DNA from: a virus
Lineage: Duplodnaviria > Heunggongvirae > Uroviricota > Caudoviricetes
Virus record (IMG/VR): IMGVR_UViG_2731957841_000006
Coordinates: 1-18,465 of that record
Length of the DNA: 18,465 nucleotides
Direction: 5' to 3' (one strand)
Below, piece after piece: positions 11,636-18,465 of this stretch; within the stretch, counting starts at the first letter, position 1, and each line of letters starts with the position of its first letter. The position numbers were made by a program, and so were the translations under genes. The notes beneath the pieces are model-generated. The model was not told the DNA's origin and did no database searches. It was given only the letters and a program-made list of their open reading frames with translations.

Positions 11636-11647
11636 GCAAAAAAGAAA

Positions 11648-11690
11648 AACCGCAGACACGACGTATGCATGACGTGCTGCGGTTTATGCT
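11648..11690 (+). terminator. Candidate terminator hairpin downstream of tfa (copy 1 of a duplicated ~40-bp sequence)
   Basis: CCGCAG(A)CACG ... CGTGCTGCGG stem followed by TTTATGCTT; a near-copy occurs at ~15811-15853. Confidence 0.45.
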
Positions 11691-11751
11691 TATCACTTAA
11701 AGACTCAAAAATTAGGTGAGTAACGGACCGGGGACATAGCTCCTTTTTTTC

Positions 11752-12477
11752 TTAATTCATCTGGTATTTTTTTCCAAGATAAAGATTTGCTATTTCAGGT
11801 GGGGCTTCTCGACCTTCAAAACCATAGCGCGAACTTTGTGTTGCCTCAAAGTCAGGATCCTCGTCCCAGTATTTCAACGAAGGGAAATTTTCACGTGTTG
11901 ATTTGAGCCATTTATCAGCAATGAAAACCCCTCGAACGATCCCCCTTACAGTAGCAAGAATGATTTCTGCTTGGCTGGCGCGAGAGACATTAATGCGCCA
12001 GCTAAATCGAACCGCATCATAAAGCTCTGAATCCTTTGCACTTCTGTTAACGGATATCATTAATGCTTTATGATGAAATGTTATGGTTTCGGGCTGATAT
12101 GTTGCTATCAACTCTTTGACATGCGCGGCGCCGAATTCATTGCTGCCAGCACCATTCATGATATTCGTTAACCCAGGGTAGGCATCAATAAGTGCTGCTT
12201 CAACTTCGTACGCCGTCTTTTCATCAGTCATTCCGTGTCGATGGATGACATGGATAACTTCAAGTCCTGCTAACCTTATTTCTCTAATTTGCTTTAGCTT
12301 GTTGCTCAGTAACTCGTCATCATCAGTCGCTGCCACTTCACCGCGCATATGAGCAAATACGCGGTTACCTTTGCCTTTCCCTACATAGAAGGTGCTTCCG
12401 TCCCTCGGATCAATCAATCGATAAACATACCAGCCAAGGTGTTCAATTACTCCAGAAGGAAACTCAGTAATATCCAT
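11752..12477 (-). CDS. GIY-YIG nuclease-family protein with an uncharacterised C-terminal domain, ~241 aa from the ATG at 12477
   Basis: N-terminal GIY-YIG signature ([30 protein letters not shown]); C-terminal ~150 aa unrecognised; divergent from the methyltransferase gene. Confidence 0.65.
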
Positions 12478-12880
12478 TTTGCAATATCTAGGAATTATTT
12501 GTGAGACGTATATTAATGAACATTGCAAGGGTTCACAACCAGTAGTATTGAGAAAACCATCGGAGAAATGAGGCTAATCCTTTGAATTCACATAGTATAA
12601 AAAAGATACTTTTCCTCATAATGTGAGCTAATTTTATGTTTCGTTTGATGATTGGACCGGTCTCGAAAACCGTAGGCACGTAGTATGCGTTAATTTATGA
12701 ACAAACTACTTGTCTGCTGTTTTTCTGTCATTAGTCGTATATAGAATGATTCTCTATGCCTAACAAAGCATCACCAGTGCTAGATTACGTTGTAGTCACT
12801 GTTTAAATATCCAGATAAAATATTTCCTTCTGGGTTGAATGAGTGATAGAGTTTCACCCATTAGACCCGTTGGAGGAATT

Positions 12881-15557: not shown

Positions 15558-15639
15558 ATACATCCCTTTGTTAACATACAGTCAGGGTTAACATTTTTCC
15601 ATAGTTATAGATAAGCGGCTAGGAACTTAAGGGAAAAAC

Positions 15640-15664
15640 AAAAAGCCCGCATAAGCGGGCTTTT
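15640..15664. terminator. Bidirectional terminator-like hairpin upstream of the restriction gene
   Basis: AAAAAGCCCGC-ATAA-GCGGGCTTTTT: perfect 7-bp stem flanked by A-run and T-run. Confidence 0.45.
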
Positions 15665-16173
15665 GTGTCACTCGAGAGCCGCGGCTCCTTTGCGTATCTT
15701 TTTTGTCTCCTCACCGTCTGGTCGGTGTCCTGCTGAGACTGCTAATTTCCTGTTTTTGTTAGTACTGTCCTAGAACTGTCCAATCATGATTGGTGGGCTG
15801 GCGGAGTTGAAACCGCAGACACGTCGTATGTAAGAACGTGCTGCGGCTGGCTGGCCAGCTTCTGATAGTGCGAATATTGAATGATTTCTATCTGTTATAG
15901 ATTTTACCGTATTTCGGCATGAATGAAACTGAATATCCTCCCACCGATTCTCCATGACTTTACGCCACTGTCTCTAGGGCTGCTATGTGCCAGGAGCAGA
16001 CGTTACTAACATCTATCTGCATCAATCTGTGGGGAGCAGAACCGTGATATGTTAACTGCATCCAAACGGAGTCAACACCAGAAAAAATCCTCCTAGTAGG
16101 ACGGTGCACTAGTATTCATCTTGTTCTAATCTCAATCCACAGCGGTAAAAATTGCGAAGAAAAAGGGATTTAT

Positions 16174-18465
16174 ATGCTTGAAAGAATTCATCAAATTACC
16201 AGCGTGGGTTTATTCCAGGATATCCGTCCTGCTGGTATGTCCTTTAAAAAAATGACCTTTGTCTATGCTGATAATGGGCGTGGTAAATCCACCCTTGCGT
16301 CAATTCTGCGTTCCTACACTGAATTAAATCCAGATATTGTACGGCACAGGAAAACGATTGGGGAAACGACCCCTCAAAATATTCATCTGCAGTTTTCGCA
16401 GGGAAATCGTGCGATTTACGATAACGATACATGGAATGGTAAGTATTCAGATGTGCACGTCTTCGACCTAGATTTTGTTGACCGTAATGTTTACTCAGGT
16501 GGTGAAATCAGCGCTAGCCATAGAAAGCGACTGCTGAGTTTTGCGCTGGGCAGTGATGCGGTAGCCGCGAGGGCTGCTTTTATTGATGCATCAGACAAGG
16601 CAGAGGAGGCCAAGAGAGTTACGAGACTGGCAAGTGAAAAGCTGACAGTAGCCCGGGGGAATGTAACTCTAGCAAAATACATAAAGCCTGTTCAGGAAGA
16701 TAACATTCAGGAAAAAATTGCATTAGTCGAATCAGAACTGGATCTCTGCAAAAGAATAGAGACGATCCGCAACCGTACGGGTTATCTTTCGTTACCTCTT
16801 TACGCTCCTGATTTCAGTTCTTTTTTTTCCACTCTTGCAGCTAGCTATGACAGCCTCAGTGCGGGTGCAGAAGAGGTCGTCTGTGCGCATATTGACCATA
16901 TCAATGTCGAAGGTTTTGAGCGATGGGCGAGCAACGGCCTTGATTATATAAAAGACGAATATTGTCCTTTCTGTACGCAAAGCCTGGAGGGTATTGAACT
17001 GATCCGGTACTACCGGGAGCGGTTTAATCTTGCATACAAAGCCTTACTTAATCAGGTCACAGGCCTAGATAAAGTTGTGGCGACTGCCATGCGCGTTTTC
17101 AATCTGGCCTTACTTGAAAGCAAGATTGAGCAGGCTGGTTTAGTGACTGAAAATTGGAAAGATTGTCTCCAGTTGCCCGTGAGTCTCCCTGATTTAGATA
17201 AAATTAAAGCTAGTTTGGAAGGTCTTCAATCATCGCTGAACCGCTTAACGGAAGCCAAGAAAAACGATCCGCTTGCAAAGACCCAAGGCGACTATGAAAA
17301 AGAAATCGCGGATGCAGTAACTGCAATCAATGATGAGCTTTCTATCTTTAATTCGGGCGTGGAAGCTGCCAATCTGGATATTCAGGCTTATAAAGAGGCG
17401 CTTGAAACCAAAAATGAAGAAACCCTGCGGGTTACATTATCCCAGTATGAAGCAACACGACTTCGTCTATCACCTGAGATAGTAGGTTTTATCTCTGATT
17501 ATCAGACCGCTAAAACTGCTGAAGTGGTTGCCTCTGAACTGAAGGAAACACGGAGGGCTGAACTCAATGCGATCATGGACTCGACCCTTGGAAAGTATCA
17601 ATCCTCCATCAATGATTTATTGATGAAGTTTGGTGCAAGCTTTCGCATCACAGAAATTAATTATAACTATGCTGGCGGCGGTGAGCCTAAGTCTGAATAT
17701 GCAATTGAACTTAGAGGGGAAAAGATTTCGCTAACGGGAGAAGAATCCAGTTTCCGGAGCTCATTGAGTGAAGGGGACAAAAGGACGCTAGCCTTCGCAT
17801 TCTTTATTTCAGTGTTGCTTCATGACGTTGATCTTGAGAGAAAAATTGTAGTGATTGATGATCCGATGTGTAGTCTGGACAATCATCGCAGGAACCACAC
17901 AATCACCATCATTAAACAGATTTACCTTCGCAGCTTGCAGGTAATCATCTTGGCGCACGACCTGTTCTTTATCCGTACCATGCGAGATGAGTTCCTGAAA
18001 ATACCTGCTACTCAAATGCAGGACATTTCAACCTTACGCATTGTCAACATTGCTGGTGATTTCAGTAGCTTGGATAAACTAGATATCGATCTGGAATGTG
18101 AATCTCCCTACTATAAAAATCATCGTCTGGTGAGCGGATTTGCCGATGGTGCTCATCATCAGCTTCACGATACGGCGGTGGCGATCAGACCGCTTCTTGA
18201 AGGGTATCTGCATCGTCGTTTCCCGGGGCAAATTTCACCGGGAAATCTGTTTGGAGAGGTAGTAGCGCAGATTGCACAAGCACAACCGAGCGATCCGTTA
18301 TTCTTCGCTAAATCACTGGTACCTGAGTTGAATGAAATTAACAATTATGCTGGTCGCTATCATCATGACACGAACCCTCAGGCATCATCAGAACCCATCA
18401 CGCCAGGTGAACTGATGTCTTACTCTCGACGGGCTTTGAATGTGATTTATCGCGGAAACATATGA
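16174..18465 (+). CDS. AAA_13-family ABC-type ATPase with CxxC (zinc-hook-like) motif and C-terminal domain; RloC/PrrC-like candidate anticodon nuclease, 763 aa
   Basis: Walker A (ADNGRGKST), central coiled-coil-like region with YCPFCTQ, ABC-signature-like LSEGDKRTLAFAFFIS, Walker B (KIVVIDDPMCSLD), His/Arg-rich C-terminal ~150 aa; AAAGGG 6 nt upstream of the ATG; adjacent to an R-M system. Confidence 0.7.
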   Translation: MLERIHQITSVGLFQDIRPAGMSFKKMTFVYADNGRGKSTLASILRSYTELNPDIVRHRKTIGETTPQNIHLQFSQGNRAIYDNDTWNGKYSDVHVFDLDFVDRNVYSGGEISASHRKRLLSFALGSDAVAARAAFIDASDKAEEAKRVTRLASEKLTVARGNVTLAKYIKPVQEDNIQEKIALVESELDLCKRIETIRNRTGYLSLPLYAPDFSSFFSTLAASYDSLSAGAEEVVCAHIDHINVEGFERWASNGLDYIKDEYCPFCTQSLEGIELIRYYRERFNLAYKALLNQVTGLDKVVATAMRVFNLALLESKIEQAGLVTENWKDCLQLPVSLPDLDKIKASLEGLQSSLNRLTEAKKNDPLAKTQGDYEKEIADAVTAINDELSIFNSGVEAANLDIQAYKEALETKNEETLRVTLSQYEATRLRLSPEIVGFISDYQTAKTAEVVASELKETRRAELNAIMDSTLGKYQSSINDLLMKFGASFRITEINYNYAGGGEPKSEYAIELRGEKISLTGEESSFRSSLSEGDKRTLAFAFFISVLLHDVDLERKIVVIDDPMCSLDNHRRNHTITIIKQIYLRSLQVIILAHDLFFIRTMRDEFLKIPATQMQDISTLRIVNIAGDFSSLDKLDIDLECESPYYKNHRLVSGFADGAHHQLHDTAVAIRPLLEGYLHRRFPGQISPGNLFGEVVAQIAQAQPSDPLFFAKSLVPELNEINNYAGRYHHDTNPQASSEPITPGELMSYSRRALNVIYRGNI

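Follow-up and report, generated by a model that had tools for sequence, protein, structure and literature searches.

The right-hand part of an 18,465-nt stretch of tailed-phage DNA (IMG/VR record IMGVR_UViG_2731957841_000006, positions 1 to 18,465; hereafter the window) holds a group of defence genes comprising the type IV nuclease gene CMoRE, an EcoRII-like restriction-modification (R-M) pair and a gene for an RloC-like ATPase. The region constitutes the cargo end of a decayed lambdoid prophage remnant of Escherichia coli, integrated at the tRNA gene thrW. In our judgement these genes very probably represent three independent anti-phage modules that accumulated one after another between the tail fibre assembly gene tfa and the right attachment site attR. 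Gene identities, domains and motifs, module boundaries and genome distribution were computed here, while all enzymatic activities of the island are predictions made from sequence. An initial annotation of this DNA had proposed a three-gene defence island at the tail-fibre end of a prophage remnant. The genes were found where it had placed them, between tfa and attR, and its identifications of a GIY-YIG nuclease, an EcoRII pair and an RloC-like protein proved essentially right, as judged by Pfam, PADLOC and PDB matches; the number three applies to the systems, not to the genes, of which there are four:

11752-12478, minus strand: CMoRE/PD-T4-3, GIY-YIG type IV nuclease gene (Pfam LEM-3_GIY-YIG, PADLOC, PDB)
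12881-14314, plus strand: M.EcoRII/Dcm-family C5-methyltransferase gene (Pfam DNA_methylase, E 5e-78, and DNA_meth_N)
14349-15563, minus strand: intact gene for an R.EcoRII-type type IIE endonuclease (Pfam EcoRII-N, E 5e-60; EcoRII-C, E 1e-71)
16174-18465, plus strand: gene for an RloC-family ABC ATPase-HEPN protein of 763 aa (Pfam AAA_13), its stop codon being the last 3 bases of the window
15982-18465 in the window, plus strand: RloC-like cassette, 2665 bp in full, with its last 181 bp and the right repeat past the window end

Linkage and boundaries of the modules

Linkage of the modules was counted in 5426 complete RefSeq E. coli genomes. The CMoRE module was present in 822 of them, the R.EcoRII gene in 261 and the intact junction between CMoRE and the methylase gene in 242. 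The RloC-like cassette occurred in eight (seven at 99.9-100% identity, one at 85%), always apart from EcoRII, and no genome of this set contained all three modules together. About 70% of the CMoRE carriers lack EcoRII, and in these CMoRE-only genomes homology to the window ends at 12672-12688. The exact ATPase protein was found in ten contexts, namely eight Qin-like prophages (the gene's neighbours there being a DUF977 gene and hokD), one Rac-like prophage and one thrW prophage; nine of the ten have no R-M neighbour. These distributions do not support the layered co-operating system with a tRNA-targeting backup that the initial annotation had suggested. That annotation had named two observations that would speak against its proposal. 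Unlinked occurrence in relatives was indeed found for the RloC-like gene and partly for CMoRE, whereas a frameshift affects one gene, CMoRE, in the window itself, the methylase (M), endonuclease (R) and ATPase genes being intact. Of the 266 records matching the R gene, 250 have at least 99% identity, as would fit the spread of a single young module.

Downstream extension resolved the right boundary of the island, which cannot be seen in the window. An exact-sequence look-up of the ATPase protein identified the complete genome CP134644.1 (L012 among the loci collected for comparison), which has the same gene order as the window and is 99.98% identical to it over 10,069 nt. In L012 a 64-bp copy of the thrW 3’-end, 96.9% identical to attL, lies 429 bp past the ATPase stop codon and is followed by a LysR remnant and then by paoD. 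This repeat, found at 12721-12784 in L012, 18553-18616 in L001 and 21117-21180 in L003, also ends the element in strains NT1F31 and PSJ-23. The position of attR in L012 places the entire island inside the prophage, and the L012 continuation up to attR contains no further partner gene after the ATPase gene.

The modules meet at defined elements, whose hairpin folding energies were compared with those of shuffled sequences where a z-score is given:

11647-11686, minus strand: hairpin copy 1, left edge of the CMoRE module (-21.1 kcal/mol, z -3.6; U-run)
12650-12672, plus strand: tRNA-Ser anticodon-arm fragment, right edge of the CMoRE module
12664-12726, plus strand: hairpin copy 2, D1 plus inverted repeat I2, at the CMoRE/EcoRII junction (-21.6 kcal/mol; U-run)
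14321-14343, both strands: hairpin shared by M and R (plus strand -16.2, minus strand -19.1 kcal/mol)
15641-15664, minus strand: intrinsic-terminator-like hairpin from the terminator scan, upstream of R (-22.3 kcal/mol, z -5.5; U-run)
15810-15846, minus strand: hairpin copy 3, D1 (-21.8 kcal/mol)
15977-16004, plus strand: left inverted repeat GGGCTGCTATGTGCCAGGAGCAGACGTT of the cargo slot, from junction alignments (‘left inverted repeat’ in P2-EC records)
L012 12447-12473: right inverted repeat of the cargo slot, from junction alignments

A hairpin sequence of about 40 nt, designated D1 (AAACCGCAGACACGNCGTATG...), is present in three copies, starting at 11647, 12667 and 15810, which form the borders between tfa and CMoRE, between CMoRE and EcoRII, and between EcoRII and the cargo slot. 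This suggests that recombination at the terminator-like D1 element stacked the modules. Homology to the Sakai genome begins at 11647, exactly at copy 1, which likely terminates the CMoRE gene. Copy 3 and about 130 nt after it form a unit (15808-16004) that recurs in L018, L066, L074, L079, L107 and L111, and in other contexts this unit stands before the left repeat of the slot. The tRNA-Ser fragment that ends the CMoRE module on its right corresponds in prophage Sp1 of Sakai (L014 7960-8040) to a longer sequence that comprises the whole tRNA-Ser 3’ half and ends in CCA, suggesting that CMoRE once lay at the edge of another integrative element in a tRNA-Ser gene. The hairpin at 15641-15664 would shield R from leftward read-through. 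The hairpin or terminator that had been ascribed to each gene is real and folds better than shuffled sequences, but the one that follows the ATPase gene is beyond the window end and visible only in L012. A promoter scan returned 17 sites against 13.2 expected, and no promoters were called.

Identity and predicted roles of the modules

The product of the first gene matched PD-T4-3 in PADLOC (E 5e-128) and, in a phmmer search, the solved CMoRE structures (PDB 9U75, E 2.6e-157; PDB 9U7U, E 4.9e-138). PD-T4-3 has been renamed CMoRE, a one-protein type IV restriction enzyme that protects against T-even phages, acts on DNA containing 5-hydroxymethylcytosine (5hmC) or its glucosylated form (5ghmC), spares 5-methylcytosine-methylated host DNA according to the published affinities, and has as its defining features the GIYxY-YIG motif plus a negatively charged loop (PMC12923530). 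The protein encoded here has the motif, with Y17, Y19 and Y31 (GWY17VY19...FY31VG, numbered from the ATG at 12478; the mechanically called open reading frame (ORF) uses a TTG start and extends to 12528), and an acidic TDDDE loop. From this likeness it is predicted to cleave 5hmC/5ghmC DNA, with T-even phages as targets. The ‘extra nuclease’ of the initial annotation is a characterised type IV enzyme that complements EcoRII by substrate and has no known interaction with it, and the GIY-YIG gene should carry the name CMoRE. It resembles the CMoRE genes of E. coli ECOR68, APEC O1 and O157:H7 in its near-identical sequence, motif, acidic autoinhibitory loop and single-gene layout, and that of Sakai Sp1 in its prophage position beside tail-fibre genes. 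Unlike these, the copy in the window has lost its 20 C-terminal residues and is joined to an EcoRII pair, as in only about 30% of carriers.

The loss of these residues results from a 1-nt deletion in a homopolymer. The run at 11767-11773 consists of seven T (A7 on the coding strand), while L001 and L012 have 8 nt there. Through this -1 frameshift YQMN takes the place of the last 20 residues, giving 241 aa instead of the 257 aa encoded in L001, L012 and L014. L014 has a G+A7 run of the same length at this position. Since the run is intact in L012, which is otherwise 99.98% identical, the frameshift is either very recent or a sequencing error, and the window copy may have an incomplete C-terminal modification-sensing domain and be weakened or dead.

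The EcoRII pair showed the expected features of its family. Against NCBIfam PRK10458 the methylase reached 927 bits (cutoff 710); its ORF opens at 12839, the RefSeq start being 12881 with GGAGGA on its 5’ side. The R protein aligned with PDB 1NA6 over residues 1-403 (E 6e-243). The two genes are convergent, 35 bp apart. They share with EcoRII (PDB 1NA6; M.EcoRII/Dcm) the two-domain R protein over 403 residues, the Dcm-family methylase with a DNA_meth_N domain and the convergence on a shared hairpin, so that recognition of CCWGG and dependence on multiple sites are predicted by sequence relationship. The pair is, however, a diverged allele, with about 1 in 8 residues different in the printed alignment, and it is located at a prophage end; the classical EcoRII system is plasmid-borne.

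The product of the fourth gene was compared with 31 homologues (36-85% identity) and with the published defining features of RloC (PMC2610378). Invariant in all 31 sequences are the ABC ATPase motifs, i.e. Walker A (N34-T40), S532-D535 (LSEGD531) and Walker B (558-563), together with D562/D563, S567/D569 and the switch H595, as well as a CPFC hook at 264-267 (C264, C267) and a triad R672-x3-E676...H730/H731, the corresponding element of RloC being defined as a C-proximal Arg-x3-Glu-x36-52-His (PMC2610378). An AlphaFold model (predicted local distance difference test score, pLDDT, 83) is mostly helical from 114 to 485, with a low-confidence break at 254-274 around the CPFC motif. Foldseek with the full model returned Rad50/SMC heads with coiled coil as best matches, which dominated the result with nothing on the C-terminus, and a sequence search of solved structures likewise found Rad50 and ABC heads only. 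When modelled separately, the C-terminal part adopted the HEPN fold. Some homologues bear the JGI/UniRef name ‘wobble nucleotide-excising tRNase’. The ABC motifs and the long coiled-coil insert with CxxC are those of RloC from Geobacillus kaustophilus and Acinetobacter baylyi, the R-x3-E...H triad agrees with theirs except in its spacing (see below), the size lies within the range of 658-897 aa, and no type I/III R-M locus is linked. At the family level the designation RloC-like is therefore justified, and an annotation as RloC-family ABC-HEPN protein is preferable to one as generic AAA ATPase. It may be an orthologue of the characterised RloC or a member of the prophage-borne ABC-HEPN group whose prototype is APECO1_4465 (PMC3710099).

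Assignment of this gene to PrrC was rejected. As in PrrC-EcoprrI, an ABC ATPase is fused to a predicted HEPN anticodon nuclease, and both cases evoke a backup to restriction at the level of translation. However, PrrC has no coiled-coil/hook insert, which is present here, and always resides within a type Ic hsd locus, whereas the neighbour of the RloC-like gene is of type II and usually absent; the PADLOC PrrC model covered only residues 475-609, in the ATPase part (E 5e-7). One RefSeq genome (H26, NZ_CP053787.1) has the RloC-like gene split by IS1, and in the Rac-like context insertion sequences (IS) lie about 55 bp upstream of its start (L013 8274-9939); such insertions may reflect selection against a toxic gene.

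Each module would act on its own, in a different situation. The EcoRII methylase would mark CCWGG on host DNA and the endonuclease would cut incoming unmethylated DNA with several CCWGG sites, while CMoRE would degrade DNA with hydroxymethylated or glucosylated cytosine, which evades EcoRII, T-even DNA being the typical target. On the model of the Geobacillus and Acinetobacter enzymes, the Rad50-like ATPase with its coiled coil and zinc hook is proposed to sense DNA damage or ends during infection and then to free the C-terminal HEPN nuclease, so that tRNA anticodon loops would be cut, translation stopped and the infection aborted; both this trigger and the RNA target are extrapolated from those relatives. 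The tRNase would thus act once DNA-level defence has failed. The modules would complement each other by substrate only, with no indication of physical or regulatory coupling. In a native-host study of a different strain, PD-T4-3, which was active in its native clinical isolate, and an R-M island protected additively and without overlap, which fits complementarity without interaction.

A functionally coupled system modelled on PrrC-EcoprrI, in which R-M would keep the RloC-like nuclease silent until a phage anti-restriction factor released it, could account for the adjacency of the genes in the window and in L012, and PrrC and some RloC genes are indeed embedded in R-M loci. We nevertheless regard it as very unlikely. 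Such coupling is known for type I (PrrC) and type I/III (rloC) loci, not for type II EcoRII (PMC2610378). The identical cassette does without an R-M neighbour in nine contexts, as noted above, and in eight of eight RefSeq genomes. According to published descriptions RloC is regulated by the ATPase domain that it carries itself, and between the EcoRII and RloC-like modules lie both a strong terminator and a cassette boundary. Overall, the evidence speaks against a new mechanism based on coupling. The genes could instead be mainly selfish or decaying cargo of little present use in defence, EcoRII serving to stabilise the remnant by addiction, CMoRE being broken and the RloC-like gene being a toxic passenger, which would agree with the CMoRE frameshift, the loss of lysis, head and tail genes, the truncated fibre gene, the IS insertions in and before the RloC-like gene, and the post-segregational killing caused by EcoRII. 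This explanation appears improbable, though less so than coupling, since the M, R and RloC-like ORFs are intact and nearly identical across many genomes, the near-identity of the R gene suggests recent spread rather than decay, PD-T4-3 is active in a native host, and the E. coli chromosomal dcm, which shares the EcoRII specificity, would blunt addiction. An assembly artefact could be suspected at the junction of the EcoRII and RloC-like modules, which is absent from the complete RefSeq genomes and lies within a repeat common to several prophages; we give this almost no credence, because the independent complete genome CP134644.1 has the same arrangement and continues into attR, the LysR remnant and paoD, and because the junction falls exactly at the left repeat of the slot, where other genomes hold other cassettes.

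Independent accumulation of three modules is thus the interpretation we favour, although some points weigh against it. The CMoRE copy is truncated by a frameshift, which could be a sequencing error. As many as 93% of the prophage EcoRII copies adjoin CMoRE, a possible hint of co-selection, although the near-identity of the R-gene records fits the spread of one young module. The Glu-to-His spacing of the fourth gene product is 53-54 residues, one or two beyond the range of 36-52 in RloC orthologues. Finally, its subfamily, distant from these, is listed in PADLOC only as candidate family PDC-S06, its function being predicted from sequence. The components, the hotspot and the concept of stacked defence are already described, and the finding is mostly ordinary. 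New are the rare triple, the almost constant association of prophage EcoRII with CMoRE, and signs that the slot repeats flank cassettes in lambdoid prophages as well, including a site in the early region, all of them modest leads. The locus serves as a worked example of a dead prophage end that keeps gaining defence genes, with defined junctions and with each module found alone elsewhere.

The repeat-flanked cargo slot

The RloC-like gene arrived, as we propose, as a 2.7-kb cassette that entered an inverted-repeat slot known from the Z/fun region of phage P2. The cassette is 99.8-100% identical across contexts (99.8% over 2665 bp in comparison with L002 and L004-L011), and the slot repeat is imperfect and about 28 bp long. 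A search of phage records with the repeat retrieved P2, P2-like phages and the entries AJ512676-AJ512685 (‘proviral Z-region’), in which the two arms are annotated as ‘left inverted repeat’ and ‘right inverted repeat’; both arms align with the annotated repeats of AJ512680 and with P2 15326-15361. This bears out the earlier description of the region as a known cargo hotspot, in that the third cassette lies between inverted repeats annotated for P2 Z/fun. In P2 the repeat stands about 50 nt after gene G (tail fibre assembly) and ahead of fun(Z), a nonessential gene that blocks T5 according to the P2 record. The entries AJ512676-AJ512685 reportedly belong to a study by Nilsson, Karlsson and Haggard-Ljungquist from 2004. 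Rousset et al. cite the 2004 Nilsson study for one of two variable P2 loci with anti-phage genes. A literature search with the repeat sequence itself returned no papers.

As in the P2 Z/fun (TO) hotspot, the same left and right arms surround variable, often anti-phage cargo downstream of a tail fibre assembly gene. Unlike it, the slot is located in a lambdoid remnant and 4.3 kb from tfa, compared to the canonical distance of about 50-90 nt, because two other modules were inserted in between; in Qin-like prophages, furthermore, the same repeats also bracket cassettes at an early-region site, with DUF977 on one side and hokD on the other. A scan of viral contigs with a pattern of the left arm identified 95 contigs, with the repeat 63-87 nt past the aligned tfa end in 21 of them and after a DUF977 gene in eight. 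Over all collected loci, 66 left arms had a right arm 0.5-5.8 kb downstream, enclosing 32 different cassettes. At the thrW locus, the position after EcoRII is occupied by PD-T7-1 in NT1F31 and by a PD-T7-1-related gene plus another ORF in PSJ-23, these alternative cassettes being bracketed by variants of the two arms. Twenty cassette cargo proteins and two proteins of the PSJ-23 slot were scanned. Matches comprised PD-T7-1, a full-length 277-aa type IV restriction enzyme, AbiGi, HEC-08, HNH effectors, an ATPase-Toprim fragment, and TIR, HEPN_LA2681, PLD and RES domains, and several proteins remained without a match. The 32 cassettes, many of them with defence-type domains and no match to a named system, make the repeat-flanked slot the most useful lead of this analysis, and such short inverted repeats offer a way of locating cargo slots.

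These observations raise the possibility, which we put forward only tentatively, that the Z/fun-type repeats, rather than being peculiar to P2, mark an active cassette-exchange system moving single defence genes between P2-like and lambdoid prophages, also beyond tail-fibre sites, as in the DUF977-hokD gap of Qin-like prophages. A recent traveller would then be the RloC-like cassette, of which identical copies occur in three prophage backbones. In a weaker variant of the cassette-exchange proposal, the pairing of CMoRE with EcoRII would be co-selected, as the two address complementary cytosine states.

Several other assignments of the repeats were discarded. Folding of the window copy of the left repeat was no better than that of shuffled sequences (z 0.15), which speaks against a stable hairpin; many other copies of it have a perfect 8-bp stem. 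No direct repeats border the cassette in either context, as would be expected of a transposon with target-site duplication. The core consensus of integron attC or Hin/Pin inversion sites was unmatched by eye, and no integrase or invertase gene is nearby. In some Qin-like prophages (L016 796-1461) a gene for QueH, an epoxyqueuosine reductase, occupies the gap between DUF977 and hokD instead of a defence-type gene; the right repeat is absent there.

The prophage remnant and its tail-fibre genes

The features to the left of the island are as follows:

1-1254: proA, first gene of the window
1369-1444: thrW, tRNA-Thr (ARAGORN)
1399-1462, plus strand: attL core, formed by the 3’ part of thrW and adjoining bases, repeated as attR outside the window
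1459-2622, minus strand: tyrosine integrase gene
8402-11051, plus strand: stf, side tail fibre gene, 5’-truncated (Pfam Phage_fiber_2 and Collar)
11051-11635, plus strand: tfa, tail fibre assembly gene (Pfam Caudo_TAP, E 1e-44)

A lambdoid-type early region follows the integrase gene and stops at about 8400, where it is joined to the interior of stf; its match to other genomes stops at 8402. Genes for late regulation, lysis, head and tail are missing from the element, so that ‘prophage remnant’ is correct as a description. The pair stf-tfa, which had been placed upstream of the island, is present there, but stf has lost its 5’ part: in the ORF 8043-11051 the left portion is not fibre sequence, and the match to the fibre genes of L001 and L012 begins at 8398-8402. 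L012 shares this breakpoint in stf (about 8398-8402) but has another sequence, lysis genes, on its left side, a hint that the fibre gene contains a point prone to recombination. The L001 homologue of tfa is a tail fibre assembly protein by RefSeq name. The GC content of the island (0.38-0.48) is lower than that of proA (0.50-0.58) and of stf, where it reaches 0.61.

An icd/e14 context, our first guess, was ruled out since the first gene is proA and the attachment site thrW; e14 integrates at icd. The remnant nevertheless resembles the right end of e14 (stfE-tfaE-pinE-mcrA), a cryptic prophage in which tail-fibre genes are followed by a gene for modification-dependent restriction, and in L101 the 277-aa type IV restriction enzyme likewise occupies the repeat-flanked slot. 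It differs from e14 in its thrW site, the absence of an invertase gene, and different and more abundant cargo.

Within stf, the segment 8500-9500 encodes a long repetitive stretch rich in Ala, Ser, Thr and Glu (GC up to 0.60, AT skew +0.44), whose internal repeats recur in many viral contigs. Apart from tRNA, an Rfam scan of the window detected only IS009, a candidate small RNA from intergenic screens in E. coli, which matches the 3’ part of tfa (11394-11592, 226 bits).

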